Assembly (NCBI GenBank): GCA_963836235.1
Contig: CAWIIP010000001.1
Span: 49,191 to 113,190, forward strand
Source of the DNA: an uncultured Pseudomonadota bacterium
GTDB lineage: Bacteria > Oederibacteriota > Muellerivitia > Muellerivitales > Muellerivitaceae
Direction: 5' to 3'
Length of the DNA stretch: 64,000 nucleotides
Part shown: one piece after another, positions 14,156-54,919 of the stretch
How positions within the stretch are numbered: position 1 is the first letter of the stretch
How the letters are laid out: every line of letters begins with the position of its first letter
Position numbers and translations under genes: made by a program
The notes under the pieces: generated by a model
Seen by the model: the letters and a program-made list of their open reading frames with translations, nothing else
Told to the model about the DNA's origin: nothing
Databases searched by the model: none

Positions 14156-14238
14156 ATGAACATTAGAACGCAGATAAAAAATGAGTTAAATTCGGCTAAA
14201 ACTTGATAAAATTTGAGGCATCTGACGGGAGGTTGGAT

Positions 14239-15920: not shown

Positions 15921-16017
15921 TTCCAAATTTTTTTATTCAGCGGATTTATATTGGGTTTGTTTGACCAAAGGGTTCGCGTGCCTGCCCTATACCGGCAACA
16001 GATTCATTAGGATTTTT

Positions 16018-18517: not shown

Positions 18518-18606
18518 AGGTGTTCCTTTTTCTTTAGAGTCGGTTGAGAGTAAACAATAATAAGAATAAACACAACCCTCGTGGTAGGCGCTGTTCCAAA
18601 GGGGTG

Positions 18607-32434: not shown

Positions 32435-33001
32435 ATGCTTTGTCAAAGATGTCAACAACGCCAAGCCACTGTTTTTTTCTCGCAGACCATCGGTAACCAA
32501 ACGACCCAGGCTCATTTGTGCGAAGTTTGTGCCCGGGAGCAAACCCAGGGATATGGCGGCATGAGTCCTTTTGCTTTTAATCCCTTTTCCGCCCTCTCGG
32601 ATTTTCTCAATAATTTCATGAATTGGAACGAGGGCGCTATCGCCGAAGTGAATTCGGGGCGGACCGGTTCGGTGGCGGTCGATCCCCAACTCCAATGTCC
32701 CTATTGTGGTTACCAACTTTCAACTTTCCGGCAAAATGGCCGCTTGGGATGCACCAAGTGTTATGAATCCTTTAAGAGCGCCCTGCAGCCTTTGATTTCC
32801 AGCATTCACGGAAATGTCCAACATGTTGATGAGGGTGTGGACTTGAAAAAACCCGAAAATCAAGCAGCGGCATCGGGGGAAAATATTTCAAGCCCTGAAA
32901 TCAAGGCTTTGAGGGAGAAACTAAAACAACTCATTGCGAGCGAAAAGTTCGAGGATGCGGCCCGTTTGCGGGATCAAATCAAAAACTTGGAGAATGACTA
33001 A
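32435..33001 (+). CDS. mcsA: Protein-arginine kinase activator McsA (zinc-finger + UVR domain)
   Basis: Four CxxC pairs (CQRC, CEVC, CPYC, CTKC) and C-terminal UVR-like motif (…EKFEDAARLRDQIKNLE…); immediately upstream of mcsB-clpC. Confidence 0.75.
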   Translation: MLCQRCQQRQATVFFSQTIGNQTTQAHLCEVCAREQTQGYGGMSPFAFNPFSALSDFLNNFMNWNEGAIAEVNSGRTGSVAVDPQLQCPYCGYQLSTFRQNGRLGCTKCYESFKSALQPLISSIHGNVQHVDEGVDLKKPENQAAASGENISSPEIKALREKLKQLIASEKFEDAARLRDQIKNLEND

Positions 33002-34063: not shown

Positions 34064-34218
34064 CGACCGCTCATAGTTTGCGCTTACAAGTTGGTCAACA
34101 GGAACCGGAATTTAACCCTGATGGACTCAAATCCATCCGGCAATTATGACTCTAATCATTGATTTATGGGCCTAATTCAGTTGAAATAGGCCGCAAGCCA
34201 TCCTTTAAGGAGAAAGCC

Positions 34219-36669
34219 ATGTTCGAAAGATTCACCGAACGAGCTAAAAAAGTCATTAACCCATTGGCGAAGGAAGAAGCCCGCCGACTGAACCACAATT
34301 TTATAGGAACCGAACATCTTTTGTTGGGTCTCATTCGTGAAGGCGGCGGAGTCGCCGTTGCCGTTTTGGAATCCTTGGGTGTGGACTTGGAATCCGTTCG
34401 GATTGAAGTGGAAAATCTAACAACACCTTCCTCAGATACCTTAACCATCGGTGACCCTCAATTTACCCCCTCGGCCAAAAAGGTATTGGAATTGGCTGCC
34501 GAGGAATCCCAGAAATTGGGCCACAACTATATTGGTACCGAGCATTTGTTGCTAGGACTGATCCAGGAAGGAGAGGGCGTGGCTGCCCGCGCCTTGGAAA
34601 ACCTGGGTGTTACCTATGAGAAGTCCCGCGACATGGTCATTAACCTTTTAGGCGGAACCTTTCCGAAATTTTCAAAACAAGTCAAAAAATCCAAGACTCC
34701 GGCTCTCGACACTTTTGGCAGGGATTTGACCCAAATGGCTAAAGATGGAAAACTGGACCCGGTCATAGGTCGTGAGGATGAAATCGAACGGGTGATCCAA
34801 ATTCTTTCCCGCCGCACAAAGAATAACCCGGTGCTCATTGGGGAACCGGGTGTAGGGAAAACGGCCATTGCTGAAGGCTTGGCGCAACGGATTAAGGAAG
34901 GTAATGTTCCCGAATTGCTACTAGATAAACGCATTGTGACCTTGGATTTGGCGGCCCTCGTGGCCGGGACCAAATACCGTGGGGAATTCGAAGAACGGTT
35001 GAAGGCCGTCATTAACGAAATCCGCCAATCGGGGAAAGTCGTTCTTTTCGTGGATGAGCTTCATACATTAGTAGGAGCGGGCGCCGCCGAGGGAGCCATT
35101 GACGCCTCCAATATGTTGAAGCCTGCTTTGGCCCGTGGGGAATTGCAATGCATCGGAGCCACGACCCTCAATGAATATCGAAAATACATCGAGAAGGATG
35201 GCGCCTTGGAGCGCCGTTTTCAAATGATTATGGTCGATGAGCCCTCGGTAGACGAAACTATCCAAATTATTAAGGGTTTGAGGGACCGCTATGAAGCCCA
35301 TCACCGCGTGCGTATTACGGATGATGCCATTGTGGCCTCGGCCCAATTGTCCCATCGTTACATCTCCGGCAGATTTCTTCCGGATAAGGCTATTGATTTG
35401 ATCGATGAAGCGGGAAGCCGTACACGACTTCGCATAACGACCATGCCTCCTGAAATTCGAACTTTAGACAAAGAAGTGGAAAAGATTAAGCAAGAGAAGG
35501 AAGAAGCTATCAAGACCCAGGAGTTTGAAAGGGCGGCAGATTTGCGCGATAAAATGAAAAAAATGCGCCAAAAGCTGCAGGAAGAAAAAGAAAAATGGGA
35601 AAACATGAAATCCAAGGAAGAGGCGGTTGTTACTTGGGAAGACATTGCTTATGTCGCCTCCAAGTGGACGGGAATTCCCATGATCAAGCTGGGTGAAAAG
35701 GAAAGCGAGAAGCTTTTGCGCATGGAAGAAGAGCTCCATAAGCGCGTGGTGGGACAGGAAGAGGCTATCGTGGCCGTTTCCAAAGCCATTCGCCGCAGCA
35801 GGGCCGGGATCGGAAATCCCAAAAAACCGATTGGAAGTTTTATGTTTATGGGACCGACGGGTGTTGGAAAGACCGAATTGGCCCGGGCTTTGGCTCAGTT
35901 CCTTTTTGATGACGAGGATGCTTTGATTCGTTTTGACATGAGCGAATACATGGAAAAATTCAACGTGTCGCGTCTGGCGGGAGCTCCACCGGGATACGTG
36001 GGACACGACGAGGGCGGCCAATTGACCGAGAAGGTTCGGCGGAAACCCTATAGCGTGGTTCTTTTTGACGAGATTGAAAAGGCCCATCCGGAAATCTTTA
36101 ATGTCATGTTACAAATCTTAGAGGACGGGCGTTTGACCGACAGTTTGGGACGGGTGGTGGATTTCCGCAACACGGTTGTCATCATGACCAGCAACCTAGG
36201 CGCAAGGGAAATGGGGATTGAAAGGAATCTTGGTTTCAACCCCGATGGCGCTGAAATGTCCTTTGAAAGCATGAAAACAAAAATCCAATCCGAATTGAAG
36301 AAAGCCTTTAATCCGGAATTTCTGAACCGGGTGGATGACATCATTGTTTTCCATCCTCTGGAAAAGTCCCACATTGAAAAGATCGTGGACATACAACTTG
36401 AGGACGTTCAGAAACGTCTAAAAGACAAGAGCATCACACTGGCGCTCGAAGCCTCGGCCCGGGATTTTCTGATCGAAAAGGGTTACGACAAGGTCTATGG
36501 CGCTCGCCAGATGAAGCGATCGATTCAAAAATATGTGGAGGACGCTTTGGCCGAGGAACTATTGCGCGGAAACATTAAAGAAGGTGCCAGCGTTGTTTTG
36601 AAGTCGGCTGGCGACAAATTAGAGTTCGTTTCCGGCGAGGTTAGGCCTGCGTCTGCCGCTACCGTTTGA
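34219..36669 (+). CDS. clpC: ATP-dependent Clp protease ATP-binding subunit ClpC
   Basis: Start ATG 34219 (SD AAGGAGAAA); Clp-N repeats, two AAA+ modules ([16 protein letters not shown]), UVR-like linker; ORF track start 34159 is upstream of the RBS. Confidence 0.9.
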
Positions 36670-36682
36670 AACGAGGTAGGGC

Positions 36683-39600
36683 ATGAAAGCGAAGCCTGAA
36701 GCCGATTCCGGCTTCGTAAAGGCGACGCCGGACAATAGGGATAAGCCGAGAAAATTTCAGCGACTTCGCTGGGTTCTCTTGATCATGGCGATTTTAACCG
36801 GGGCTTTTTTGTTCTTTCAATACCGGATCGTCGATACCCAACTCCGGCCGATCATTGAAAAGCAGTTGGCCCAGGCCGTTCATTCTCCTGTATCCATCGG
36901 TTCGGTCAGGGCCGGGCTTACCGGCAATGTGGTTTTGAACCATGTTTCCCTAATGGTTCCCGGATCCCCTTGGGAAAGTCGGTTGGTCGTCGAACAAATT
37001 TCGGTCAGTGTTGACCTGTTCAGTCTGTTATTCCACCGAAAACCCCTGGAAGATTGTTTTGAAAGCTTGTTTTTTCTCCATCCCGATATTGTTTTGGTGA
37101 AAAATATAACATCTCCGGTCCCGTTAGCCGGTCTTTCCGGATCAGCGACCGTCGTTGCTCCAGCGGTGACCGTCCCCATTCCAGTATTTCCTGTTCCCAA
37201 AATTTCAGTTCGGGAAGGCTCTTTTTCAATCCAGGCGGAGAAAACGCCCCGTGAGGTTCTACATGGCTTAAACTTTAGCGCAGCCACCGATAATGGCGCC
37301 ATCTGGGGACTTTCGCTCTTGGCCCATTCTCCTGAAGCTGGAAGCCAGGGAATCGTCCAATTTGATGGCAGCCTTCGATTGGAAGATTTGAGAGTGAGAG
37401 GGGTTACGAAATTACACCAGTGGCCCCTTGCCTCCACCAGTTCGACTTTAAAAGATACTACCGGGTGGGAATTATCTTCGGGGACAATCGATATGGAATC
37501 GCCGGTAGTCCTCCAACCAGGCCGGCCCATTTGGTTTGACGCCAAAGCGGACTTGTCTCAAGCAGTCCTTAAATCACCTAATCCCGTTGGGGTTACTTTC
37601 GCACAAATCACCGGCCGGGCCATGATTCGCCCTAATGAGGTGACAGTTCCGGGTGAAATCAAGTTCCAGGTTGGGGAAACCCCTTGGCGTGCCTCAGGTC
37701 TTATCCCTTTTGATGGCCGTCCTCTTTCCGTCCGTACTTCCACAGATGAATTATTTCTCTCAAGCGTTTTTGAGGATATTTTGAAGTTAAAAGACATGAA
37801 AGCGGGTGGAAAAGGTTCCGCCACGCTATCGGTTGCCGGGACTTTTTCAAATCCCATTATCGATGGAACGGCCCAATTGGGTCCTTCCAGCGTAGGGGAT
37901 TGGCAGTTGGATTCCTTAAGTCTGAAAGCGGGCTACGAAAACGGGCAGTTTCAATTGAAAGAAGCGGACGGACAACTCTACGAAGGAACTTTGACGGCCA
38001 ATGGATTCTTGGCCTTATCGGGACAACCCGACGCTCCCGTATCACTCAATGTAAACCTGGTAAATGTTGAGGCTGAAAAAGTCGCATCGACTTTAGGAAT
38101 ATCGGGAACCGAAGGTCGGATTGATCAGGAAGTCCACATTGGTGGATCGATGGAAAAACCGATTATTTCTTCTAGTGGCCAGATGGAGTTGGCTCGTACT
38201 TTGAGGAACACCCTCTTCCATTACTCCATTCGCAATAACGTTCAAATGAAAGATCAAAAACTCCAAATTTCGGCCACCATAAATGATAAATCCCGTTTGG
38301 AAGGTCTTTTTGATGAAAAAACAGACTATTGGGAGCTTCAAAAGTTTTCGATTATGGCTGGGAAAAAAATCGTAAAACTGGTTGGAACCGGCGTTTTGCC
38401 TAAATCAGATGATAAACCCATGCAAATTGAGGTTTCTGGAAAGGATATACCCATCGAGAATCTGCCTTTCTTTAACGACCAGTTTCAAGATATTACCGGA
38501 AAGGTAAATTTAGATTTCCAGGCCTCCGGCACTCGAAAGGAACCCCGAGAATTAGTTCATCTTGTCTCTGATGCGGTAACTATAAAAACCATCAGTGACG
38601 AGTCAACGTCCGCGGAGGTTGAGTCTTATTCTTTAGAGGCCTTGCTGTCCTGGGAACCTGATGAAGTAAAATTTCAAAAATTAACAATCGGAGATCCCTC
38701 CAATGAAATATTTTCAGCTGTTGGATATCTTGGACGAAAGCCGGAATCATCAAATGACCTAAAAGTCACAGCCAATGGGTTTCCTATCCAGCATATTGCT
38801 GAAATCACCCAATGGAATAATCCACCTCAACCTTTTGAGGGGTCGGTCACGGGGCATATGCATATTTCCGGTTCGGCCGACAACCCAATCGTGGAGGGAG
38901 ATGATATTGGGATTGAAGATTTGAAAGTTGGGGATTGGCATGCCGCAAAAGTGGCGGCTTCCTTGAACATGGAAGATGGAAAACTCCATTTCAAAAAGTT
39001 AAAACTAGATCAAGGATTGGGTTTCCTTGCCGCTAGCGGCTCATGGGATACGAAGGCTCAGCCCGGGATATTGACACTTCGGTTTTCGATGACCGAATTT
39101 CAGTTGGGGAGCGGACCTTATCTTTCCGGCGATTTTCTTTTGGATGCGAAAACCACCGGAGATCCCTTCTGGCAAAACTGGAATGGCAACTTTTCGACCA
39201 CCGCATTCGATTTGAGGGATTTAAAAAACAAAACCTATCATTTTAATAATTTTTCCATGGCGGCCGTTTTTGCCGACATGGTGTTAAAAGGAAGATTAAC
39301 GCTGGGTAAAGCCATTGATGGATCGGCAATTTTGGACCTATCCGGAACGGTTCCCACCGTCCAAGCGGATTTGAAAATACAACCATCCCTGCTTTCGGAA
39401 GTGCCCGAACTTATCCAGTTTTTACCCCCCTCCTTAAAAGTTGCGGGGTACATTTCGGGAGGCATAAAACTGAAACAAGGGACCTTAGAAGAACTTCCGA
39501 TAGAGGGGTCTGTGTCTGTTACAAATGGAAAAATTCAAAAGTATAGCTTTGACCGCATGGGGTTCAACTTTAATGGTGGAAAGACGAAGGTTTCTTCCAG

Positions 39601-42589
39601 TTTCACGCTGGCGCGAGGCGAGGCTAGTTATAATCTCGCCGGGACTCTTGAATCGGCTCGAGCCATTTGGGATCCAGACAGCAAGATTGATGTTAATGGG
39701 CCTGTTGAAAAGGAAAAACTTCAAAATATTCTCGCTCTTTTGGGAATTGATACTGAAAAGCATAAAGTTGGAGGCGAGGTCAATGGAAATTTGTCCATTA
39801 CCGGACTTTTAGCCAGCCCCGTTGTTGGCTTTTCAGTTACGGGACAAAATTTAAGATACGACAATAATATCTTTCCTTCGGCTGAATTGCATTTTTCGGC
39901 CGCCGATGGAAAAATTAATTTGGAAAAAAACAAGATAACGTTGCCAAAAGGCCAAGTAAATATTGACAGCGGAAACGCCTACTTGGACCCAAAGGATTCA
40001 ACCGTTGTTGTGATGGACCTGCGGGGATCCACCCAAAATTTGCCTATCGCTGTTTTTGACCTGACAAGTCAAATCCATTTATCCGGTCGTCTAGCGCTTG
40101 AAGAAAAAGAAACGCGCCCAACTTTTGATGGGCTTCTTTCTATCATCGAATCGGGGCAGGATCCCAAAAACATCGTTCCTTTTGACTTGGCTTTAGGTGT
40201 TCATAACAAAATAATTGATTTCAAACCTTTAGACAGCACCGAAGCCCAGTTAGTGGGTCGGTTAGACCTTTCCGAGGATGGGAAAATCATTTTTAAGGAT
40301 TTGCACCTTTTGAATACCGTCGGTTCTTTTACCGTTGACGGAACTTTAGATTTCAATGGACCCTGCCAATTAGTTTCAGACGCGAAAGATGTACCGATTC
40401 AAGAAGTTTGGAAATGGATTTTCCCCAAGTTTCCATTGAGCGGAACCGGCAATTACCATCTTATTTTAAATGGAACATTGGATGATCCGTTGTTTACCAA
40501 TTCTATCTCCGTCTCCAATGGAAAAGTTGGTGACCTGAATTTTGACCTTTTGAATGGTGAAATAAAATCCCATGATAACACCCTTTACTTTGGGACTAAG
40601 GACAGTCCGCTTATGCTAAGCCGGAAGGGGCAATTTACCTTCACCGTGGGAGGCAAAATGCCATTTGCCATGACCACGGCTAGTTGGCTTAAAGTTCAAA
40701 ATCACGAAATGGACATTACAGCCAATATGGATCAAGGCGATTTTGGCATCATTCTTCTGGCGGGTTTTGCGAAACAGGCGTCGGGTAGTATGGATTTTTC
40801 AGCCCATGTTGGGGGAACACTTGATAATCCAAATGTCATCAGCATGGACCTGGATTTAAATAAATGTCGGTTGGTTCCTGAGATTGTGGCGCAATCAATT
40901 GAGGATATCAGTGGACGAATTAAGATTCGGAACAACCACTTAGGTGTTGAGGACCTTAATGGACGAATTGGACAAGGCCGCGTTTTTATCACTTCGGATC
41001 CTGTTGAAAAAAGCAAAATGGTTCTGGAAAATTTTATCCCCCAATATTTGGATTTTCACGTTCGAACGGTTGGGGATCATGGCTTATGGCTTAGCATTCC
41101 AACTATTATGAAAAAAGGAGAATGGGGTGAAATTTATTTTTATGGTTCCAGCCCCGATGATGACATGCTTGTCAAGGGGTCGTTGGAAGAGCCTCATGTC
41201 ATTGGAACGGCTTTTTTGGATACAGGCCATTTTACCTTTCCGCCGGAACCGGCGGTTGATGAACATGGGAAACCAATCGAGTACCGGGAATTGGCTGGAG
41301 TTTATTTTCAGTTAAAACTGAAAGCCGGAAAAAACACTTGGTATTCCAATGACTTTGATACTCAATATTTGGAGTTGAAGGTTGATCCCGGTGATGAAAT
41401 TTCCATTGAGGGAAAAGACGCTGATCGTACACTCGAGGAAGCAGGAATCAAGTGTGTTGGTGAGGCTGGGTCCAAGCAAGGCTGGCTCCGGTATTTGGGA
41501 CATGAGTTTCAATTGGAGGAGGCGACTCTCCATATTCCAAAAGGGAAACCCCCCATTATGCAGGGGCGTGCGACAGATCGTCTTAGGGGAATTGAAGTTC
41601 CGTCGGCAGGAGGGGTTCAGAAGACCGACATGGATATATGGGTTGATTTCAACGGATCTTTTGGAAAAATCGACTTTACCCTTGATTCAAACCCTCGATT
41701 CAGCATGACTGATAAGGACATACAACAAAAGTTATTACTTTCTTATATCATGTTTGGCCGTGACATGACCGGGTATACAAGTCAACAGCTGCAACAGTAT
41801 TTTCAGCAAAATAACGGTCAAGTGGTCAGCGATTCTCTTCTCGAGACATTCGATCGTATTTCATCAAGTCAAGCCACACAGTTACTGAGGCCATTAGGGC
41901 AAAAGCTTGGTGGAATTGATATGACGGTCGACGCCAATCTCGGTAGCGCTCTTTACGGTAGTAATCAAAATAATTCTTCAGTTACCACAACGGGCGGAGT
42001 ATCCCAAGTTGTTCCGGTGGGCCAGGCTAATAATGTAGTAGGAGCGACTGTTCCGTTGGTCCAGGTTAAGATTATCAAACCGCTTGATAGTAAGCTTTCA
42101 ATTTTAGCCGTTCCAGGAGTTAACCGGGATTCTTTGACGGGAATTGCTGGCCTGCAGGGACAATTTGGTCTTCAGTACGATTTGTCCCGTAATTTGAACC
42201 TCAACGCAACCACGGGTGCAAATGATATTGGTCAGCAGGAAACAAAAGTTGGATTTGAACTTCACCAATCTTTGCCTGATATTATGAGTCCGAAAAAGGG
42301 CGACACAGTCAAACCTCATTTTGAAAGAACCGACGCTTACACCATTGGAACTGGCAAATATCAGCTTATCTGGGTCACGGATAAAGTAACGAGGAGCGAA
42401 GTAAAGATAGTGGATGAAAATGGGCAGGTGGTTCAAGATGTTTCTGAAAATACTGAACACGAATACGACCATCAGATGATTGTGGATAAACTAAATCCAG
42501 CCGCAGACTACAAGGTTGAAATCTTGGTCAAGGATTTAAACGAAAACGAAAACGAAGCTATTTTAAAGATTTCCGCTTCAGAAGATTAA
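36683..42589 (+). CDS. Giant TamB/AsmA-like translocation and assembly module protein
   Basis: 1968 aa; N-terminal signal-anchor TM, very long beta-rich repetitive body, C-terminal region with TamB/DUF490 character; located directly upstream of bamA. Family assignment from architecture and context, not a database hit. Confidence 0.62.
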   Translation: MKAKPEADSGFVKATPDNRDKPRKFQRLRWVLLIMAILTGAFLFFQYRIVDTQLRPIIEKQLAQAVHSPVSIGSVRAGLTGNVVLNHVSLMVPGSPWESRLVVEQISVSVDLFSLLFHRKPLEDCFESLFFLHPDIVLVKNITSPVPLAGLSGSATVVAPAVTVPIPVFPVPKISVREGSFSIQAEKTPREVLHGLNFSAATDNGAIWGLSLLAHSPEAGSQGIVQFDGSLRLEDLRVRGVTKLHQWPLASTSSTLKDTTGWELSSGTIDMESPVVLQPGRPIWFDAKADLSQAVLKSPNPVGVTFAQITGRAMIRPNEVTVPGEIKFQVGETPWRASGLIPFDGRPLSVRTSTDELFLSSVFEDILKLKDMKAGGKGSATLSVAGTFSNPIIDGTAQLGPSSVGDWQLDSLSLKAGYENGQFQLKEADGQLYEGTLTANGFLALSGQPDAPVSLNVNLVNVEAEKVASTLGISGTEGRIDQEVHIGGSMEKPIISSSGQMELARTLRNTLFHYSIRNNVQMKDQKLQISATINDKSRLEGLFDEKTDYWELQKFSIMAGKKIVKLVGTGVLPKSDDKPMQIEVSGKDIPIENLPFFNDQFQDITGKVNLDFQASGTRKEPRELVHLVSDAVTIKTISDESTSAEVESYSLEALLSWEPDEVKFQKLTIGDPSNEIFSAVGYLGRKPESSNDLKVTANGFPIQHIAEITQWNNPPQPFEGSVTGHMHISGSADNPIVEGDDIGIEDLKVGDWHAAKVAASLNMEDGKLHFKKLKLDQGLGFLAASGSWDTKAQPGILTLRFSMTEFQLGSGPYLSGDFLLDAKTTGDPFWQNWNGNFSTTAFDLRDLKNKTYHFNNFSMAAVFADMVLKGRLTLGKAIDGSAILDLSGTVPTVQADLKIQPSLLSEVPELIQFLPPSLKVAGYISGGIKLKQGTLEELPIEGSVSVTNGKIQKYSFDRMGFNFNGGKTKVSSSFTLARGEASYNLAGTLESARAIWDPDSKIDVNGPVEKEKLQNILALLGIDTEKHKVGGEVNGNLSITGLLASPVVGFSVTGQNLRYDNNIFPSAELHFSAADGKINLEKNKITLPKGQVNIDSGNAYLDPKDSTVVVMDLRGSTQNLPIAVFDLTSQIHLSGRLALEEKETRPTFDGLLSIIESGQDPKNIVPFDLALGVHNKIIDFKPLDSTEAQLVGRLDLSEDGKIIFKDLHLLNTVGSFTVDGTLDFNGPCQLVSDAKDVPIQEVWKWIFPKFPLSGTGNYHLILNGTLDDPLFTNSISVSNGKVGDLNFDLLNGEIKSHDNTLYFGTKDSPLMLSRKGQFTFTVGGKMPFAMTTASWLKVQNHEMDITANMDQGDFGIILLAGFAKQASGSMDFSAHVGGTLDNPNVISMDLDLNKCRLVPEIVAQSIEDISGRIKIRNNHLGVEDLNGRIGQGRVFITSDPVEKSKMVLENFIPQYLDFHVRTVGDHGLWLSIPTIMKKGEWGEIYFYGSSPDDDMLVKGSLEEPHVIGTAFLDTGHFTFPPEPAVDEHGKPIEYRELAGVYFQLKLKAGKNTWYSNDFDTQYLELKVDPGDEISIEGKDADRTLEEAGIKCVGEAGSKQGWLRYLGHEFQLEEATLHIPKGKPPIMQGRATDRLRGIEVPSAGGVQKTDMDIWVDFNGSFGKIDFTLDSNPRFSMTDKDIQQKLLLSYIMFGRDMTGYTSQQLQQYFQQNNGQVVSDSLLETFDRISSSQATQLLRPLGQKLGGIDMTVDANLGSALYGSNQNNSSVTTTGGVSQVVPVGQANNVVGATVPLVQVKIIKPLDSKLSILAVPGVNRDSLTGIAGLQGQFGLQYDLSRNLNLNATTGANDIGQQETKVGFELHQSLPDIMSPKKGDTVKPHFERTDAYTIGTGKYQLIWVTDKVTRSEVKIVDENGQVVQDVSENTEHEYDHQMIVDKLNPAADYKVEILVKDLNENENEAILKISASED

Positions 42590-42807: not shown

Positions 42808-45174
42808 GTGAATGTTTTGTCTATTTCAGAAGTGAAAGGTTTGTTTTTGCGACGCTTTAAATCAACTCCGTTTTTTCTCGGCTTAAGCCTAGCTTTTGCA
42901 TTCACTTTTTGTCTCTTTTGTGCCGGTTCTTTACGAGCACAGGATGACGCCGAAACCGCCAAAATATCCGCTCTTAAAATCGAAGGAAACAAAAACGTCT
43001 CCAGTTTAATTATTTACGGACATATACAAGAGAAGGAGGGCGATGTCTTCTCTTTGCGTCGTGTTCGAATGGATATTCATAATCTTTTTTCCATGGGTGA
43101 TTTTAAAAATGTGAAAGTGGAAGCTTTACCGGGTGAAAAGGCAAATCAAATCATACTGATTTTTAAAGTCGAGGAACGGTCAATTATCGGCAAGATGGTT
43201 TTTAGGGGAAACAAAAAATGGGAAGCGAAAAAATTCCTTGAGGAAATGAAGCTGGCTCCCAAAGCCGCCTTCAATCAGGCGAAATTAAACGACGATTTGG
43301 CTGCCATCAAAAAGCTTTATATGGATGAAGGTTATTCAAACGTCCTTGTCCAATCCCAAATTAAGTCTGGAGCGCAGGAAAACACGATCGACCTTATCAT
43401 TGAAATTACAGAAGGGTTTCAAATTAAAGTTGGCGGTGTTGACGTTATTGGCGCCCAGGCTTTCAGCGGTAATAAAGTGGCTGATCAAATGAAGGAAAAC
43501 AAAAAAGGGGAAAAATACAAACCCGATGTTTTAAATGACGACATGAAAGCCATTGAGGAATTTTATCACGATGAGGGGTACTTAAAAGCGGTCGTTTTGG
43601 ATCATGAGGAAAAAGTAAATGAACAAAAGAAAAGAGTTTATCTGACAATCACGGTAAAAGAAGGCGTTAGGTACACCTTGGGAGACTTAAAAATAACCGG
43701 TAACATCCTCTTGGATGATTCGGAACTTTTAAAAGCTTTTGGCTTGAAAAAGGGAAACCTTTTGAGAAAGAAGGATCTGGACGAGGGAACGCGTAACATG
43801 AGGTCAATGTATGCCGACCGGGGTTACATTTATTCAAACATTAATCCTGTAATGACCTACGATGATGATCTTAAAAAAGCTGATATTACTTTTGAGGTGA
43901 CGGAGGGACAGGTTGCTTATATCCAAGATATTAAAATTGTTGGAAATTATAAAACTCAGGATTATGTCATTCGCCGGGAACTGGAAATCAAAGCAGGGGA
44001 CAAGTTTGAGGCCGCTAAGATTAAGTTGTCCATACAAAACCTTATGAATTTGGGGTTTTTCGAGGAAGTTAATCCGGATGTTGAACCAGGCGATGGTCCG
44101 GGGAAGGAAATCCTTGTTTTCAAAGTGAAAGAACGAAAAACCGGATCGATTAGTGTGGGTGGTGGGTATAGTTCCGTGGATGGTTTCGTGGGAAATGTTA
44201 AGTTGGAGGAAGGGAACCTATTCGGAAAAGGACAAAAAGCAACTTTGGATATTGAATTTGGGGCTTCACGCACAAGCTTTAGTGTCGGCTTTACCGAACC
44301 CTGGCTTTTCAATACGAGAACCTCGCTGAGTATTAATCTTTTTGACACAACTCGAATTTTCACTACGGCGGTTTTGAATCCAGATGGTACCAACAATTTT
44401 TACACCGAAACCGAAATCGGAGGTACGGTTAGCTTGGGTCGGCGTTTGAGCCGATATTGGAGTCTATACGGTTCTTATACGCTACAAAATGTTGATGTTT
44501 ATAACGTTGATTCCTATTACGCCACTATCGGCAGCCCGCAATATATCGCTGCGACAGATTCGACCACCAGTAGTGTCACTCCCCGAATTGTTTATGACAG
44601 TAGGGACAATTATTTTGATACCACATCTGGTTGGAAACACCAGCTTTCCATAGAGTTTGCGGGTGGGCCCCTAGGATTTGACAATAACTTCGTAAAAGCC
44701 ATAGAAGACAGCAGTCATTTTATTCCCCTGCCCGCGGGTTTTGTGATCGGAGAACATGTTCGTTTAGGCGCGGGACAGGGTTATTGGTTTGCAGGAAGGG
44801 GATATTCCGATTTGCCCCTCTACGAAAAATTTTTTGCGGGTGGTACGGACACTATCCGGGGTTATAACGAAAGAAGCGTCGGCCCTGTCGCTGGTGGGAA
44901 CGCCCTTTTTGTCTCTAACACGGAACTCAAGCACCCTATTGTGGGCCCGCTTCGTGGCGTTGTTTTCTTTGACGCAGGAGACGCCTGGACAAATATTTGG
45001 AATACGGATGAATCGCATGTCCAATATGGGGCAGGAGTGGGGCTGCGATTAACGATTCCCGGAACGATTATGGATATACGTCTTGACTATGGTTGGCCCA
45101 TTCATTCGGATTTGTCTTCGGAGGCTGCGCCACCAGGCGGTGTACTGCATTTTAACTTGGGGAATCTCTTTTAA
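42808..45174 (+). CDS. bamA: Outer membrane protein assembly factor BamA (Omp85, POTRA repeats + 16-strand barrel)
   Basis: 788 aa; signal peptide, repeated POTRA-like modules (…VGNYKTQDYVIRRELEIKAGDKFEAAKIK…), C-terminal beta-barrel ending in aromatic residue (…HFNLGNLF). Start may be GTG 42832 rather than 42808. Confidence 0.85.
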   Translation: MNVLSISEVKGLFLRRFKSTPFFLGLSLAFAFTFCLFCAGSLRAQDDAETAKISALKIEGNKNVSSLIIYGHIQEKEGDVFSLRRVRMDIHNLFSMGDFKNVKVEALPGEKANQIILIFKVEERSIIGKMVFRGNKKWEAKKFLEEMKLAPKAAFNQAKLNDDLAAIKKLYMDEGYSNVLVQSQIKSGAQENTIDLIIEITEGFQIKVGGVDVIGAQAFSGNKVADQMKENKKGEKYKPDVLNDDMKAIEEFYHDEGYLKAVVLDHEEKVNEQKKRVYLTITVKEGVRYTLGDLKITGNILLDDSELLKAFGLKKGNLLRKKDLDEGTRNMRSMYADRGYIYSNINPVMTYDDDLKKADITFEVTEGQVAYIQDIKIVGNYKTQDYVIRRELEIKAGDKFEAAKIKLSIQNLMNLGFFEEVNPDVEPGDGPGKEILVFKVKERKTGSISVGGGYSSVDGFVGNVKLEEGNLFGKGQKATLDIEFGASRTSFSVGFTEPWLFNTRTSLSINLFDTTRIFTTAVLNPDGTNNFYTETEIGGTVSLGRRLSRYWSLYGSYTLQNVDVYNVDSYYATIGSPQYIAATDSTTSSVTPRIVYDSRDNYFDTTSGWKHQLSIEFAGGPLGFDNNFVKAIEDSSHFIPLPAGFVIGEHVRLGAGQGYWFAGRGYSDLPLYEKFFAGGTDTIRGYNERSVGPVAGGNALFVSNTELKHPIVGPLRGVVFFDAGDAWTNIWNTDESHVQYGAGVGLRLTIPGTIMDIRLDYGWPIHSDLSSEAAPPGGVLHFNLGNLF

Positions 45175-45206
45175 GTTCCATTCAATTTCTTGATATTGAG
45201 TGCTGA

Positions 45207-45231
45207 ATTCAACCAGTAAGTGCAACACCTA
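45207..45231. repeat. IS30-family left terminal inverted repeat
   Basis: TTCAACCAGTAAGTGCAACACCTAG; core matches the reverse complement of 46223-46247. Confidence 0.5.
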
Positions 45232-46189
45232 GACGAAAGACCTGCTCCGGCGTTTTGAAGCGAAGGCACTTGCGTGGACGGCTGTTGAGAGCCCGCTCCA
45301 CACGTCGCACGTTCGCTGGAGTTATGGTAGCAAAATCGGTTTTCTTTGGATAGAAGCGCCGCACCAAACCATTAGTGTTTTCGACGGTTCCCTTTTCCCA
45401 ACTGTGGAAAGGAAGACAGAAAAAGGAACGGGTTCCTAAGAGATTGTTAACTTGAAGATGCTCGATGTTTTCAGAGCCGTTGTCGTAAGTAATGGTCCGG
45501 CGTAACCCCTTCGGAAAGAGGGTGAGCCGTCGATTGATAGCTGCTCGTGTTTTCGAAGCGGACTTTTGAGGCAACCAGGCGAGTTTCACGAGGCGGCTTT
45601 TTCGTTCGACCATCACCAAAAGGGAGGCTTTACTTTTTCTGGAGATGATGGTGTCCGCTTCCCAGTGACCAAATTGACGCCGCGTCTGCACGATGGCGGG
45701 TCGTTGAGTGATCGGAGTTCGTTCTGGAATATGGCTTTTTCGATGTTTGTGCGAATGCCATCGGCGAAGCCGCTTTCGATGGGAACGAGCCAAGAGAGGG
45801 ATGAGGTTTCGGGCTTCGGAATAAATGAACTGGTAGACGGCCTCGTGGGAAATGAATAGTTTGGAGTTCTCAAGGCGAAGCTGACCAGCAATTTGTTCGG
45901 GAGAAAACCCCTGATGAAGCTTACGCAAAACATGTTGTCGGATCCCTGGTTTTTTGAGACGCAGATGGGTCCGAGAGAGTTGGTTACGCTGGGTAGATCG
46001 CAGGTGAGCCCGAGCTGGTAGATAACGGCCAGGACGTAAAGGTGGTGCGTTACGCTTCAACTCTCGGGAAACACTGGACACATCACGTTCGAGGCGTCGG
46101 GCGATTTCTCGTATGGAGAGGCCTTCTGCCTTCCAAACTGCGATTTCTTCACGTTCGGCCAACGACAGGTGCTTGTAGGATTGTTTCAT
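45209..46189 (-). CDS. IS30-family DDE transposase
   Basis: 326 aa; N-terminal HTH (…LSLAEREEIAVWKAEGLSIREIARRL…), DDE catalytic core (…HWEADTI…, …ITYDNGSEN…, …SWEKGTVENTNGLVRR…). Confidence 0.85.
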   Translation of the reverse strand: MKQSYKHLSLAEREEIAVWKAEGLSIREIARRLERDVSSVSRELKRNAPPLRPGRYLPARAHLRSTQRNQLSRTHLRLKKPGIRQHVLRKLHQGFSPEQIAGQLRLENSKLFISHEAVYQFIYSEARNLIPLLARSHRKRLRRWHSHKHRKSHIPERTPITQRPAIVQTRRQFGHWEADTIISRKSKASLLVMVERKSRLVKLAWLPQKSASKTRAAINRRLTLFPKGLRRTITYDNGSENIEHLQVNNLLGTRSFFCLPFHSWEKGTVENTNGLVRRFYPKKTDFATITPANVRRVERALNSRPRKCLRFKTPEQVFRLGVALTG

Positions 46190-46222
46190 AAAACTTAGGA
46201 TAACCCCCGGATTCTGCCGGGG

Positions 46223-46247
46223 CTAAGTGTTGCACTTCGCTATTGAA
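46223..46247. repeat. IS30-family right terminal inverted repeat
   Basis: CTAAGTGTTGCACTTCGCTATTGAA; reverse complement shares AAGTGCAACAC core and TTCAA with the left end. Confidence 0.5.
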
Positions 46248-46322
46248 CTGGGGAGTTTTAAATTTTCGTAATAATTGATTTAGAACTTAAAACTGCCCCC
46301 CAAAAACAAATATAATGCCGAC

Positions 46323-47096
46323 ATGAAAATTCTTCTGACTAATGATGACGGAATCGACGCATTTGGCCTAAAGGCCCTTTACGAAGCGGTCAAACATTTA
46401 GGTGAGATCGCTGTTTCGGCACCAGATAGGCAAGCAAGTGCCACTGGCCATTCCATTTCGCTCAATACTCCATTTCGTGTTCTTTCCTCAGCCTGGCCCG
46501 AGGTTCCTTATTCTTACAGTGTCTCCAGCACTCCGGCGGATTGCGTGAGAACCGCGGTCCTAAAGCTATTGCCTTGGAAACCTGATTTAGTGATATCCGG
46601 CATCAACCAGGGCGCTAATTATGGCTCACTCATCCTTTATTCAGGCACGGTAGCTGCGGCGGCGGAAGCGGTGTTATTAGGAATTCCATCGATGGCTATT
46701 TCATTGACTAGCCATACTTTTAAGGATTTTACCGTTAGTGCTCAATTTGCCAAAAAAATCAGCCAATGGATCATAGAAAAGGGTTTGAGCCCTGGAATCT
46801 TCCTGAATGTGAATGTACCTGCACTTGAAATGGGAAAGATCAAAGGTATGGTTTTAACGCATCAAGGTCAGTTTCGCCATGTTGAAGATTTAGAACATCA
46901 TGAAAAACTAGAAGGTCATTTCAATTACATTTTAAATAGCCCCAGCGAACCATCCCTGGAACATCCTAATTCGGATGTCGCTACCGTAAAAGAAGGTTTT
47001 GTTTCGGTGACACCGCTTCATTTAGATTTGACCGCAAAACATTATTTTTCTCATTTTTCCGATTGGTCCTGGGAGGATAAGTTTTGGATGGAATAA
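46323..47096 (+). CDS. surE: 5'/3'-nucleotidase SurE
   Basis: N-terminus MKILLTNDDGIDAFGL… (metal-binding DDG motif) and …GINQGANYG…; 257 aa. Confidence 0.85.
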   Translation: MKILLTNDDGIDAFGLKALYEAVKHLGEIAVSAPDRQASATGHSISLNTPFRVLSSAWPEVPYSYSVSSTPADCVRTAVLKLLPWKPDLVISGINQGANYGSLILYSGTVAAAAEAVLLGIPSMAISLTSHTFKDFTVSAQFAKKISQWIIEKGLSPGIFLNVNVPALEMGKIKGMVLTHQGQFRHVEDLEHHEKLEGHFNYILNSPSEPSLEHPNSDVATVKEGFVSVTPLHLDLTAKHYFSHFSDWSWEDKFWME

Positions 47097-49273: not shown

Positions 49274-49968
49274 AGTTTTCCGTCACGGTTTTTCCGGGTT
49301 CCAATTGCGATCATGATTGCGAATACGTGATCCGGGATGTCATGGGCCAGAAAGTCGAGATGATCTGGCACAAGGAAACCGACTTAAGGAATCCCGATTG
49401 TGTGGTCGTGCCGGGTGGGTTTTCCTATGGAGATTACCTGCGAACCGGGGCCATCGCCCGGTTTTCCCCGGTGATGAAATCCGTAGCCGATTTCGCCGCC
49501 AAAGGCGGGCTTGTGATCGGTATCTGCAACGGCTTCCAGATACTCTGCGAAGCAGGGCTTTTACCAGGAGCCCTTATCCGTAATAAGACCCTTCAATTTA
49601 TCTGCAAAAATCTCTATATCAAGGTCGAACAGACCGACACGCCTTTCACGAATGCCTGCAAACCGGGGCAGGTCTTGAAAATTCCTATCGCCCATGGCGA
49701 AGGAAACTACTTTATTGATTCGGAAGGTCTTAAGAAGCTTGAGATGAATCGCCAGATCGTTGTTCGCTATTGTGACGCGCAAGGGAAGTTGACCGCCGAA
49801 GCTAATCCCAATGGCTCATTGGAGAATATCGCCGGGATTTGTAACATTGAACGCAATGTTTTTGGGCTAATGCCCCATCCTGATCGTTCCGGCGAGGATA
49901 TTTTGGGCAGCCATGACGGGCAATTTATCTGGAAATCTATTTTGGCCGCCAAGGTAGGCGCATTATGA
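49270..49968 (+). CDS. purQ: Phosphoribosylformylglycinamidine synthase subunit PurQ (glutaminase)
   Basis: Class I glutamine amidotransferase with catalytic Cys (…GICNGFQIL…) and His/Glu (…MPHPDRS…); overlaps purS stop. Confidence 0.88.
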
Positions 49969-51656
49969 GTTCCTCGATCATGGAAGTCGAAATCACCCCC
50001 CAAATTATCAAGGAACATGGCCTCAAACCTGATGAATACGACCGGATTTGCAAGATTCTGAGCCGCAAGCCTAATATCACCGAATTGGGGCTTTATTCGG
50101 TCATGTGGAGCGAGCATTGCGGTTACAAGCATTCCAGGGCCCTTTTGAAAACCCTGCCGACTAAGGGGCCTAAGGTTCTACAGGGGCCCGGCGAAAATGC
50201 CGGCATCGTGGATATTGGCGAAGGTTGGGCGGTTGCTTTTAAGGTGGAATCCCACAACCACCCCTCGGCGATTGAACCTTATCAAGGGGCCGCCACGGGA
50301 GTGGGCGGCATTCTTCGGGATATCTTTACCATGGGCGCCCGGCCCATCGCTTCCTTGAATTCATTGCGGTTTGGTTCTCTCGCGGACCCCAAGGTTAAGA
50401 GGCTTTTTACGGGCGTTGTCAGGGGAATCGCGGACTATGGCAATTGCATGGGTATTCCGACAGTGGCCGGAGAAGTGGTTTTCGATGAAAGCTACTCAGA
50501 GAATTGTCTGGTCAACGCCATGTCGGTCGGATTGGTAAGGCACGAACATATCATCAAAGGGAAAGCCACCGGGGTGGGGAATCCGGTCATCTATATCGGG
50601 GCGACCACGGGGCGGGATGGAATTCATGGCGCAACTTTCGCCTCTACCGAAATAAGCGACGAATCCACCGAAAAGCGGAGCGCAGTCCAGGTCGCTGATC
50701 CCTTTATGGAAAAGCTACTGATGGAAGCCACGTTGGAACTCATCCATAGCGATCTTTTGGTGGGAATTCAGGACATGGGGGCGGCCGGTCTCACCTGTTC
50801 CACCTGTGAAATGGCGAGCCGAGGTGGGGCCGGAATCGAAATCGACGTGGCTAAGGTTCCCAAGCGTGAAAAGGGAATGACGCCTTATGAAATCCTGCTT
50901 TCCGAATCCCAGGAGCGCATGTTGCTCGTGGCAAAGCCGGGTTGTGAACAAAAAGTCCATGATATCTTGGCCAAGTGGGACTTACACGCGGCCACAATTG
51001 GGGTTGTGACGGATACGGGCCGCATGGTGGTGAAGGAAAACGGCAAGGTCGTGGCGGACGTTCCTGCTGATTCCTTGACCGAAGCGCCCGTCTATCATCC
51101 GGCCAAGAGCGAACCGGCGATCTTGAAAAAGCATCGTGAATTCGACGAGTCAAGCGTCCCCACTTCAAAGAATCTGCAGGATGTCCTTGAAAAATTACTT
51201 TCGGATCCAACCATCGCCAGCAAAAGATGGGTTTACCAGCAATACGACCATATGGTCCGTTCCAATTCGCTAGTGCGGCCCGGGTCGGACGCGGCGGTTA
51301 TCCGGGTGAAAGGGACATCATTGGGATTGGCGATGACTATTGACGGATTGGGTTCCTATTGCGCTCTGGACCCTTATGAAGGGGCGAAGATCGTAGTGGC
51401 GGAAGCCGCCCGTAATATCGCCTGTTCCGGGGCCGAACCAATTGGCATGACCGACTGTCTGAATTTTGGAAGCCCTGAAAAACCTGAAGTTTACTACTAT
51501 TTTGACCGTGTCATCGCGGGGTTAGGCGACGCCTGCAGGGCATTTAATATTCCCATCACTGGTGGAAATGTCTCTCTTTACAACGAAAATCCATCGGGTG
51601 CCATTGATCCAACTCCCATCGTTGGGATGATGGGACTTTTTTCCAATGTCGGATAA
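49965..51656 (+). CDS. purL: Phosphoribosylformylglycinamidine synthase subunit PurL - N-terminal 563 codons; reading frame breaks at 51637-51656
   Basis: Clear PurL (FGAM synthase II) sequence; ORF stops prematurely after …[12 protein letters not shown]; PurL continues in the +1 frame from 51646. Confidence 0.85.
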
Positions 51657-52195
51657 AGCCGTGACCCAATGGTTTAAAGAAGAGGGTGATTTTGTTTATT
51701 TGTTAGGAAATATTGGGGATTCCATTGGTGGAAGCCGCTATTTACAGCTCATCCATGGAAAAAAGACTGGGGCTTGTCCTAAATTAGATTTAGAGGTCGA
51801 GTTGAAATTGCATCAAGCCCTGAAGGTTATGGCCGATGAAAAGCTTCTTCAAAGCGCCCACGATTGCTCCGATGGGGGTTTTGCTGTGGCTTTAGCTGAA
51901 TGCTGTGTGACGGGCTTAACCCATGAGGCGAAAACCCAGGGGGCCAAAGCTACTTTGCCGGGTACGGGACGGTTGGATGGCCGCCTTTTTGGGGAAGCTC
52001 AATCGAGAGCGATTGTTTCTTGTAAACCCGACTCTGGGGCCTCAAGTTGAAGCTCAGGCCCGGAAATTAGGCGTACCTTGCGTCAAAATCGGTCAAGTCG
52101 GCGGGGATTCTTTGGTGATTGAAAATGTAATCAAGGCACCCGTCAACCTATTGGCGGATTTGTTTTTCACTAGCATTGAAAAGATGATGGCCTAG
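51646..52195 (+). pseudogene. purL: purL C-terminal remainder split over two further frames (frameshifted gene or sequence indels)
   Basis: 51646-52050 encodes PurL-like …[31 protein letters not shown]…SAHDCSDGGFAVALAE…; a second +1 shift near the G-run at 52035-52038 leads into …PQVEAQARKLGVPCVKIGQVGGDSLVIE… (51923-52195). Removing one T from the T6 run (51637-51642) and one G from the G4 run restores a single ORF of about 740 aa. Confidence 0.7.
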
Positions 52196-52214: not shown

Positions 52215-53516
52215 GTGTCTCAGATGTTAGAGGATGATAAGCCCCACGATCAGTGCGGTGTTTTCGGCGTCTTCGGTCATCCCGAGGCGGCTAAGATCAC
52301 CTATTTAGGTTTGCATTCACTCCAGCATCGGGGCCAAGAATCCGCGGGTATTTGCACGATGGATGAGGGACGCCTTTATAACCACAAGCGGATGGGTTTG
52401 GTCGCGGACATTTTTGACGAGACTGCGTTTAAAGAATTACCTGGGAAGACGGCTATCGGCCATGTGCGATATTCCACCACTGGGTCCAGCCAATTGAGAA
52501 ACGCCCAGCCCATCGCCGTTGAGTACGCACGGGGCAGTATCGCCATCGCCCACAACGGAAACCTGGTCAACGCTCGCCGCATCCGAGACGAATTGGAAGC
52601 CCGAGGTTCCATTTTTGTTTCCACCGTTGATTCAGAAGTCATCGTGCATCTTTTGGCCCGTTCTACCAACCACACCTTGATCGAGGGAGTCATCGAGTCC
52701 TTAAAGCAAGTGAGGGGAGCCTATTCGCTTCTCATCTTGTCCGATGACGGCATGTTGGGTATGCGGGATCCCCATGGTTTCCGGCCTCTTTGTCTGGGCA
52801 AGCTGGGGGATTCCTATGTTTTGGCCAGCGAGACCTGTGCATTTGATATTGTCGACGCCAAATACATCCGTGATGTGGAACCGGGGGAAATCGTTCTTAT
52901 CAATGAGAATGGCTTGGTTTCCATTAAGCCATTCGAGAAAATCCAGTCGGCCATGTGTATTTTCGAATTTATCTATTTTGCTAGACCTGATTCCCGTATT
53001 TACGATACCAGCGTGCAAAAAGTAAGAAAGCGGCTGGGAGCCATTTTGGCGCAGGAAGCTTATGTCGAAGCTGACGTGGTTGTTCCGGTCCCCGATTCTT
53101 CCAACATGGCGGCTACAGGTTACGCGGAAGAAGCCAAAATTCCCTATGAAATGGGGCTCATCCGCAACCATTACATCGGACGAACCTTCATCGAGCCGGA
53201 TCAAGCCATCCGTGACTTCGGTGCCCGTTTAAAATACAACCCGGTTCGGGAGGCCATGGAAGGAAAGCGAGTCATCCTCATCGACGATTCCATCGTCCGG
53301 GGAACAACAATGCGTAAGATCGTCAAAATGATCCGAAATGTTGGGGCCAAAGAGGTGCATCTTGCGCATCACCTCGCCGCCCATTATTTCACCTTGTTTT
53401 TACGGAATGGACTTTCCAAGCCGGAAGGAGCTTATCGCGGCCACCCACAGCCTGGAAGAGATCAAAACCTATCTTACGGGTCGACAGTCTTTCTTATTTA
53501 TCAGTGGATGGAATGA
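52215..53516 (+). CDS. purF: Amidophosphoribosyltransferase PurF - frame correct to about 53363, then disrupted
   Basis: GTG start with SD AAGGAG; propeptide then catalytic Cys in …DQCGVFGVFG…; PRPP-binding region …VILIDDSIVRGTT…. After …GAKEVHL the authentic PurF sequence continues in the +1 frame. Confidence 0.85.
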   Translation: MSQMLEDDKPHDQCGVFGVFGHPEAAKITYLGLHSLQHRGQESAGICTMDEGRLYNHKRMGLVADIFDETAFKELPGKTAIGHVRYSTTGSSQLRNAQPIAVEYARGSIAIAHNGNLVNARRIRDELEARGSIFVSTVDSEVIVHLLARSTNHTLIEGVIESLKQVRGAYSLLILSDDGMLGMRDPHGFRPLCLGKLGDSYVLASETCAFDIVDAKYIRDVEPGEIVLINENGLVSIKPFEKIQSAMCIFEFIYFARPDSRIYDTSVQKVRKRLGAILAQEAYVEADVVVPVPDSSNMAATGYAEEAKIPYEMGLIRNHYIGRTFIEPDQAIRDFGARLKYNPVREAMEGKRVILIDDSIVRGTTMRKIVKMIRNVGAKEVHLAHHLAAHYFTLFLRNGLSKPEGAYRGHPQPGRDQNLSYGSTVFLIYQWME

Positions 53517-53632
53517 TGAAAGCCGTTGAAGGAACCCCTCAGGGTCATTGTGCGGCCTGCTTTACGGCTAAGTATCCGGTTCCTTTTGATGAGGAGACAG
53601 AAAAGTACAGTCTCGAAGTCTCCAAGTGTTGA
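53338..53632 (+). pseudogene. purF: purF C-terminal remainder in two further frames (two +1 frame breaks)
   Basis: +1 frame from about 53365 reads RITSPPIISPCFYGMDFPSRKELIAATHSLEEIKTYL (PurF Fe-S cluster region); a second +1 shift near 53470 reads …VDSLSYLSVDGMMKAVEGTPQGHCAACFTAKYPV… to stop at 53630-53632. Confidence 0.7.
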
Positions 53633-53698
53633 AGAACGGTAGTTTTTAACAATAGTTTTCCGGAAGAAACTACCCGGTTACGGCCTTTTTCCTTGGCT

Positions 53699-54919
53699 TC
53701 ATATAGTGAATGGTCGGCTCGTTTGATAACCTCTTCCGGAGTTTTCCGGGCCTTTTCCGGCAAAAGCTACTCCCGCGCTAAAGGTGATGTTTACCTTTTT
53801 GCCCCTATGCTTTTCCTTTTTAAACGGCAGGCTCATTCCTTCGTAGTTCGAGCTTCGTTTGCTGCGCAAGGTAAACTTCCGTTTTTCCATCGTTGCACGG
53901 GCCTTTTCCATCATCTCGACGGCTGATTCCTGGGTGGGGCCTTCGAAAATCACGCAAAATTCTTCACCTCCATAGCGATAAACCCGATCACCGAGGTGTT
54001 CTTGCAGATGTTGGGCAACCATTCTGAGCACATTATCACCCTCGGCATGTCCATAGGTATCATTGAACTTCTTAAAATGGTCGATATCGACCATGGCGAG
54101 GGCGTAATGGCCTGAAAGGGTATGAAGGCGCTCATCCATGGCCTGCCGGTTGGAAACAGCGGTAAGGGGGTCCAAATAAACCTTCTGCACGTACATCCGA
54201 AACAGGGCAAAAAGCAGGATACCGTCATGGTGGCAAAGGCGATAATGATGTGGGAAACCAGGGATATCCTGGTGGTCGAGTTGCCATTGATGAGGTTGGC
54301 CTGGATACAAAAGAGGAAGGGAACAAAAGTGGTCATAAGAGCAATCAGGAAGGGTTTGATTTTGAGATCCGGTAGATAAGTAACGACCAAAAGGAATAAG
54401 CCGGTAGCGACCCAGGAAAACTTAGGAAGGGATGTTAATTGGGTAGGAACGGCCTGTCCCCAGAAGAAAAGCTTCTGGTAGATATCCGGGGCCCAACTGA
54501 AAAGGCAGATGAAAAGCAGAAGGGGGAAGAGAGCCAAGAGGAACCGGGCCAGGCTGAGATCGCTCCAAAGACGGCTTTCCTTTAAGAGGTAGATGACGCA
54601 GAGCGCCAGGGGATAGGCCACACTGACAATCTGAAGGGTTTGAGGCCCAGCCCGTGGCCGTGACGGTAAAGGTATCAGGATGAAGGAGATAATAGTAAAA
54701 AGCCAAGAGAAGTATGGTGGACCAAAAGATACGGGTTTGGTTGATTTGCCAGCCCAGGATAGCAATCACGGTGAGGCCCACATAGGGAGCGAAAATGAGG
54801 AAGTCGGTAATGGCCCGATGTGAAACTATTTCAGGACTTAGTGGGGGAAGAAAATAGAAAAAAAGGGGAATGAAACAAACTAAAAGATAGATACCGGCCC
54901 ATTTGGCTTTTTCGGACAC
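53699..54919 (-). pseudogene. Membrane-anchored diguanylate cyclase (multi-TM N-domain + GGDEF), reading frame split into three overlapping frames
   Basis: 54919-54422 and 54765-53950 encode consecutive hydrophobic TM segments in two frames; 54310-53699 encodes a GGDEF domain (…DPLTAVSNRQAMDE…, …RYGGEEFCVIFEG…). Either an authentic pseudogene or two indels in the sequence. Confidence 0.6.

Follow-up and report, generated by a model that had tools for sequence, protein, structure and literature searches.

An unnamed IS30-family insertion sequence located between bamA and surE of an uncultured, probably FCPU426-like bacterium

In the 64,000-nucleotide stretch of DNA analyzed in this study (hereafter the window), a transposase gene flanked by inverted repeats (IRs) is situated between bamA and surE, which raises the questions of what kind of element it is, where exactly it ends, whether it is still mobile and whether its arrival affected the two neighboring genes. 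The results described below make it very likely that the element is a complete and autonomous insertion sequence (IS) of the IS30 family and an unnamed member of a lineage present in FCPU426, and that its insertion is intergenic and probably neutral; by analogy, it would move by IS30-type transposition.

The transposase gene (45209..46189, minus strand) is an intact open reading frame (ORF) that starts with ATG and encodes a polypeptide of 326 amino acid residues followed by a stop codon. The ORF accounts for 981 bp of the 1,052-bp element; it starts 64 bp inside the IRL end and stops 7 bp before the right end. Compact elements of this kind are about 1.0–1.7 kb in length and possess one near-full-length ORF, and the 1,052-bp element falls within this description. 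The IS30-family equivalog of NCBIfam (NF033563) matched the transposase with 255.1 bits against a cut-off of 80 (E 8.7e-76), and the match spanned profile positions 1–267 of 267. The Pfam domain HTH_38 was found at the N-terminal part of the transposase (residues 4–47, E 1.4e-19), and both Pfam and the alignment with InsI1 of E. coli K-12 IS30 revealed a single helix-turn-helix (HTH) region. The transposase was 37% identical to InsI1 over the full length (BLASTP, E 3e-61), with its residues 2–325 pairing with residues 53–382 of InsI1. The catalytic triad consists of D179, D236, and E270, which are separated by 56 and 33 intervening residues, respectively, as computed from their positions. All three were invariant in an alignment of the transposase with about 6–7 relatives that were 51–83% identical to it, and they fall within the blocks conserved between the transposase and InsI1. 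In ISfinder/TnPedia, the IS30 family is characterized by a second D and an E that lie about 33 residues apart. Moreover, the best matches among 72,556 plasmids were 37–43% identical to the transposase and all of them were annotated as 'IS30 family transposase.' The initial annotation had described an IS30-family element with an intact 326-residue DDE transposase whose N-terminus carries an HTH, and the profile match, the homology to InsI1, the triad, the HTH, the IRs and the short target-site duplication (TSD) all fit this description. The element is a previously unnamed member of the known IS30 family.

The ends of the element were set with the help of other copies. An exact look-up of the transposase returned seven contigs of about 1.1 kb (L001–L007) from seven different SRA-derived (Logan) assemblies. 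They were 100% identical to the window at the nucleotide level across 45202/45203..46253 and continued into unrelated flanks, the two points of divergence being exactly 46253 and 45202/45203. In addition, about 25–26 related copies of 1051–1053 bp from FCPU426 metagenome-assembled genomes (MAGs) aligned end to end and had the termini CCCCAG...TTCAGC. All 33 other copies shared these termini, and none of them differed at the base of 46253. When both flanks were present, including those of the window copy, perfect 3-bp duplications were found at 25 of 26 sites. From the divergence points of the identical copies and from the related copies, the complete IS is 1,052 bp long and located at 45202..46253 (minus strand). 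Based on the sequence and the homologous boundaries in related copies, its TSD is AGT, with the left copy at 45199..45201 and the right copy at 46254..46256 (both plus strand). The initial annotation had placed the ends at 45207 and 46247 and considered no TSD resolvable. The seven identical and 26 related copies correct both points: those ends lay inside the true ones by 5 and 6 bp, and the duplication was thus invisible.

Because two of the Logan contigs (L005 and L006) end one base short of 45202, a right terminus at 45203 is conceivable in principle; the position 45202 is preferred, as 25 of 26 copies show the corresponding TSD pattern. For the same reason, ends at 45203..46253 without a TSD were rejected, since perfect 3-bp TSDs result in these 25 of 26 when CCCCAG...TTCAGC is taken as the boundaries. 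Ends at 45201..46252 with GAG as the TSD were also rejected, given these same TSDs and the invariant base at 46253. The GC content of the IS was 51.5% and that of the window 49.7%, so a compositional anomaly was absent.

The terminal IRs are 31 bp long and imperfect, agreeing with each other at 21 of 31 positions. IRL, which is upstream of the transposase, is located at 46223..46253 (minus strand) and reads CCCCAGTTCAATAGCGAAGTGCAACACTTAG inward, while IRR is at 45202..45232 (plus strand) and reads GCTGAATTCAACCAGTAAGTGCAACACCTAG inward. Both contain a TTCAA box at IR positions 7–11 and the box AAGTGCAACAC at positions 17–27. The latter is the 11-bp perfect core already recognized in the initial annotation: it occurs exactly twice in the window, at 45218–45228 (plus strand) and 46227–46237 (minus strand), and the two copies are inverted with one on each side of the transposase ORF. 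Moreover, the IR ends of the window copy matched those of all other copies. IRR overlaps the final eight codons and the stop codon of the transposase gene, and its core encodes the C-terminal residues G-V-A-L-T. The core is thus constrained as coding sequence and presumably also as a box bound by the transposase. Between IRL and the ATG of the transposase gene, there is a 6-bp perfect hairpin, CCCCGG-ATTCTG-CCGGGG, at 46205–46222. A sister IS whose transposase is 55% identical carries another hairpin, of the sequence GCCGCAT...ATGCGGC, at the corresponding spot just 5' of the ATG. RNAalifold analysis of five variants revealed no conserved 5'-UTR structure, as the consensus was weak (-7.4 kcal/mol) with essentially no covariation, and no support was obtained for a function of the hairpin.

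Similar to IS30, the window IS is filled by a single transposase ORF whose product has a DDE core. The IRs of the two elements are homologous in register: IRL of the window IS agrees with that of IS30 at 15 of 27 positions (TGTAGATTCAATTGGTCAACGCAACAG against CCCCAGTTCAATAGCGAAGTGCAACAC), and the blocks common to their IRs are TTCAAT at positions 7–12 and GCAACA at positions 21–26. In IS30, IRR likewise extends over the 3' end of the transposase gene, which reads ...GGTGTTGCATTGACA and encodes GVALT. Different from the window IS, however, IS30 is 1,221 bp long with a transposase of 383 residues, and the window IS is therefore 169 bp shorter. As residue 2 of the window transposase aligns with residue 53 of InsI1, the window transposase has no counterpart of the N-terminal ~50 residues of InsI1. 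In the work of Olasz and Kiss, these residues are said to carry a first HTH, which is implicated in hot-spot targeting. IS30A of K-12 is flanked by a 2-bp duplication (AC/AC), whereas the window IS has one of 3 bp. A further difference concerns the six outermost positions of the IRs, which are TGTAGA in IS30 and CCCCAG/GCTGAA in the window IS. ISApl1, the member of the IS30 family that mobilizes mcr-1, is similarly compact to the window IS (1,070 bp with a 307-residue transposase), and the IRs of both are imperfect (21/27 in ISApl1 and 21/31 in the window IS). However, ISApl1 makes 2-bp instead of 3-bp duplications, and its hosts are Gammaproteobacteria and plasmids, whereas the window IS is found in an uncultured candidate phylum. 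The plasmid-borne relatives of the window transposase were all at most 43% identical to it, and the likeness to ISApl1 is one of described features.

A scan of species-representative genomes identified 243 relatives, of which the best 80 were listed. Among these listed matches, all close relatives of the IS were from MAGs of FCPU426, a candidate phylum of which, to our knowledge, there is no cultured representative. The closest listed relative in the genome collection was found in FCPU426 bog_1179 (L073), which had one copy with 91% amino acid and 86% nucleotide identity. Two long-read FCPU426 MAGs contained at least 8 and at least 18 copies, respectively, at 83% amino acid identity. A flank of one of these relatives (L015) matched window positions 18606–20481 at 70% nucleotide identity, and from this match and the FCPU426 origin of the close relatives, the host is probably an FCPU426-like bacterium. 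The elements of bog_1179, MFD05580.bin.1.91, and MFD03726.bin.1.149 are similar to the window IS in length (1051–1053 bp), termini (CCCCAG...TTCAGC) and 3-bp TSD; their transposases were 83–91% and their DNA 77–86% identical to those of the window IS. Copies are commonly regarded as the same IS at about 95% protein or 90% DNA identity. With nucleotide identities of 77–86%, below the threshold of about 90%, the FCPU426 elements are different iso-forms or species of IS. In addition, the second IS type of those MAGs, at 55% amino acid identity, shares the IR layout, the AAGTGCAACAC box and the 3-bp TSDs. Among the matches listed, the 100%-identical copies were found only as Logan contigs of about 1.1 kb; the exact transposase was also present on long contigs, in four blocks of at least 0.2 Mb.

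The two IS30-family elements together reached at least 52 copies in MAG MFD03726.bin.1.149 (CAWKAR01; L016–L034, L040–L075, and L082), of which at least 18 were of the 83%-identity type and at least 34 of the 55%-identity type among the 80 loci kept. This MAG shows marked IS expansion, and members of the lineage occur in multiple copies in genomes of FCPU426, an uncultured candidate division. Two individual copies deviated from the common pattern. On CAVYSE010000010.1, two inverted IS copies (L010 and L013) are located ~7 kb apart with near-identical inner flanks (AAATAATAATCCCGCA...), and L010 was the sole copy of 26 that lacked a matching TSD (CAA/AAA), which points to a rearrangement involving the two copies or to a composite structure formed by them. 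The copy of L073 (2937–3987) is 1,051 bp long and flanked by a perfect TTT/TTT duplication; a 1-nt deletion in it results in four stops on straight translation. This is either a decaying copy or an assembly error.

Nucleotide-identical copies of the window IS were present at no fewer than seven different sites in different samples. An identity of 100% with copies at this many other sites points to recent transposition, and the window copy is probably still active. By analogy with the family, its pathway is most likely the copy-out/paste-in transposition of IS30 type. The N-terminal HTH would most likely bind the conserved boxes of the 31-bp IRs (TTCAA and AAGTGCAACAC). Similar to what occurs in IS30 and ISApl1, the DDE core would then cut and join the ends to yield an IR–IR junction in the form of a circle or a tandem dimer. 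This junction would attack an AT-rich target with a 3-bp stagger, the repair of which would generate the AGT duplication. The junction would have the form IRR-NN(N)-IRL, or GGTTGAATTCAGC-N2-3-CCCCAGTTCAAT. A pattern search of 131 loci revealed no abutted IRR-N(0-8)-IRL junction, a negative that says little about the pathway. Neither the scan nor inspection by eye turned up a convincing promoter at the junction or a native one for the transposase. In 25 reconstructed targets, the flanks were 100% AT at position -6 and 92–96% AT at positions +5/+6, against a background of 50%, and the enrichment was roughly symmetric about the duplication. This AT-rich pattern of the lineage is similar to that of ISApl1, which strongly prefers AT-rich targets, with AT approaching 100% at positions that lie symmetrically a few bp from the duplication (PMC6349718).

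The element was correctly located by the initial annotation between bamA (42808–45174; TIGR03303, E 1.2e-160) and surE (46323–47096). The insertion point is 27 bp past the bamA stop codon, and the transposase gene converges on bamA. Excision of the IS together with one AGT leaves a spacer of 93 bp between the bamA stop at 45174 and the surE start at 46323, and the reconstructed empty site reads ...CTTGATATTGAGTTTTAAATTTTCG.... A SurE-based scan identified 16 related metagenome contigs, whose SurE and BamA were 62–83% and 51–93% identical to the window proteins, respectively. In all 16, surE follows bamA directly, without an IS between the two genes and with spacers of 19–114 bp; in the nearest relative (L089) the spacer is 87 bp, compared with the reconstructed 93 bp. 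As judged from gene order, this shows the bamA–surE adjacency to be ancestral and intact. The suggestion that the element may have displaced or disrupted a neighbor was thus not borne out, as excision restores a 93-bp spacer and the relatives have surE next to bamA. Because the spacers of the relatives are too diverged for alignment across the insertion point, the ancestral empty site rests on synteny and the TSD. A search of public assemblies with the exact SurE protein for the exact empty allele recovered a single contig, and this contig carries the same insertion.

The initial annotation also referred to a tamB-bamA pair, of which bamA is confirmed by TIGR03303. The gene 5' of bamA (36683–42589, plus strand) encodes a protein of 1,968 residues that matched the TamB profile over residues 1001–1138 with 31 bits, far from the cut-off of 825 (E 4.5e-8). 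With this weak profile match, tamB was not confirmed, and the TamB label is plausible from context. On the other side of the IS, a consensus scan identified a promoter-like site for surE, TTAAAA-18-TATAAT, at 46287..46316 (plus strand), which is outside the IS and intact. One such site was found in the surE spacer where 1.3 were expected by chance, and a lone consensus match of this kind is weak. However, the AACTTAAAA and ATATAATGCCG blocks of the site are conserved in the bamA–surE spacers of L089 and L091, and this conservation supports an intact putative surE promoter. No outward or hybrid promoter from the IS toward surE was found in the scan or by eye. The insertion cuts no coding sequence and leaves the putative surE promoter on the far side of the IS, and is therefore probably neutral in effect.

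Several other explanations were weighed against these results. Weak matches of the transposase to the IS21 profile NF033546 (40 bits), the IS481 profile NF033577 (25.4 bits) and, below threshold, the Pfam rve/DDE integrase core would be consistent with another DDE family that has an rve-type core, such as IS481, IS21, or IS3. The IS21 and IS481 scores, however, are far under their cut-offs of 160 and 224, while the IS30 profile scored 255 against 80. Furthermore, the element has one ORF without an IstB helper and without a frameshifted orfAB, its D–E spacing is 33 residues and its IRs are homologous to those of IS30 itself. Membership in IS481 or IS21 was rejected on these scores and on the lack of an IstB-like second gene, and assignment to any family other than IS30 can hardly be entertained. 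It is also very unlikely that the copy is a dead relic or that its transposase has been domesticated and become immobile. Although no IR–IR junction was found in the 131 loci and the ORF of the relative in L073 is broken by its 1-nt deletion, the window copy retains an intact ORF, catalytic triad, both IRs and a perfect TSD. The identical copies elsewhere, which imply recent transposition, and the relatives with dozens of copies per genome also argue for an IS that is still able to move.

With regard to the site, the insertion might not be neutral if it uncoupled surE from tamB–bamA read-through, removed the terminator of bamA or gave rise to antisense transcription into the 3' end of bamA. 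The proximity of the IS to the bamA stop codon and the convergent orientation of the transposase gene are in keeping with such effects. The same is true of the inverted repeats of the target spacer that span the insertion point (45169–45178 with 46283–46292) and of the AGTTTTAA/TTAAAACT inverted repeat (46254–46261 with 46288–46295), which could have formed a structure at the 3' end of bamA. However, a scan for a terminator-like site in the spacer predicted none, and the spacers of relatives, besides varying from 19 to 114 bp, show little sequence conservation at the insertion point. Moreover, the promoter-like site with its conserved -10 TATAAT is kept in relatives and lies between the IS and surE, and the presence of the same insertion in an independent sample indicates that it is at least tolerated. 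A regulatory effect is therefore unlikely, and a neutral insertion is preferred. A further alternative is an assembly artefact, in which a repeat was collapsed or mis-joined between bamA and surE: IS copies are classic points of breaks and mis-joins, and apparent frameshifts in the downstream essential genes purL and purF suggest an error-prone assembly. Such an artefact is nevertheless highly improbable, as the element is surrounded by a perfect 3-bp TSD and its excision gives a plausible spacer of 93 bp. In addition, the independent short-read contig L008 (ERR11718638) begins 28 bp inside the IS end and runs into surE with 100% identity. Its IS-end/surE junction is identical to that of the window, and thus the insertion is real and not a mis-join.

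The identical copies at seven or more sites across unrelated metagenome samples and the MAG with 52 or more copies raise the possibility that this IS30 lineage is now bursting in FCPU426, a reading that we hold tentatively and at slightly less than even weight. If true, it would mean an ongoing IS expansion, possibly with a recent population bottleneck or a shift in lifestyle, and it would provide a ready-made, host-adapted transposon for FCPU426 genetics. The IS30 family, its chemistry and intergenic insertions of this kind are textbook matters, and the significance of the results is mostly one of annotation. The gain consists of the exact ends, IRs, TSD length and target preference of an unnamed FCPU426 element of the IS30 family, as well as the finding that some FCPU426 genomes are IS-rich.

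Neither a second copy nor a fragment of the IS was found in the window by tblastn and blastn. When 40 additional ORFs with a minimum length of 150 residues were scanned with Pfam, no other transposase or integrase came up; 31 of these ORFs had housekeeping domains and nine were without a match. As far as tested, the element is therefore the only mobile element in the window, as had been proposed. The remainder of the window is of housekeeping nature and includes nuo, hem, glgP, pheT, prfB, lysS, lolCD-like, mcsAB-clpC, and pur genes.

Downstream of the IS, purL, purF and a GGDEF gene together show a cluster of apparent frameshifts that is confined to ~3.5 kb. The purL gene (49965–52195, plus strand) apparently lies in three frames (49965–51656, 51646–52050, and 51923–52195), with its first break just past a T6 run at 51637–51642; either purL is a pseudogene or the long-read assembly contains indel errors. 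In purF (ORF 52215–53516), the C-terminal part is garbled at 53350–53650 (plus strand), where the expected segments ...RITSPPI..PCFYGMDFP... and ...GVDSLSYLS...CAACFTAKYPVPF... are found in the two other frames, implying two more frameshifts. The gene of a membrane-anchored GGDEF diguanylate cyclase (53699–54919, minus strand) is seemingly broken into the frames 54422–54919, 53950–54765, and 53699–54310. In prfB, which encodes RF2, the classical programmed +1 frameshift site CTT TGA C is present at 27844–27850 (plus strand), and the N-terminal ~25 codons are out of frame with the main PCRF/RF-1 ORF at 27938–28876. Three consecutive ORFs at 14203–16368 (plus strand; 14203–14817, 14712–15920, and 15895–16368), which are just 5' of a GH5 cellulase gene (16466–17689), remained without a Pfam match at an E-value threshold of 1e-5. 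Finally, an mcsA-like gene with a UVR motif, mcsB for an arginine kinase, and clpC are located at 32435–36669 (plus strand), directly 5' of the TamB-like and BamA genes. The protein-arginine-phosphorylation module of mcsA, mcsB, and clpC is best known from Firmicutes, and here it is found in a bacterium with genes for outer-membrane biogenesis.
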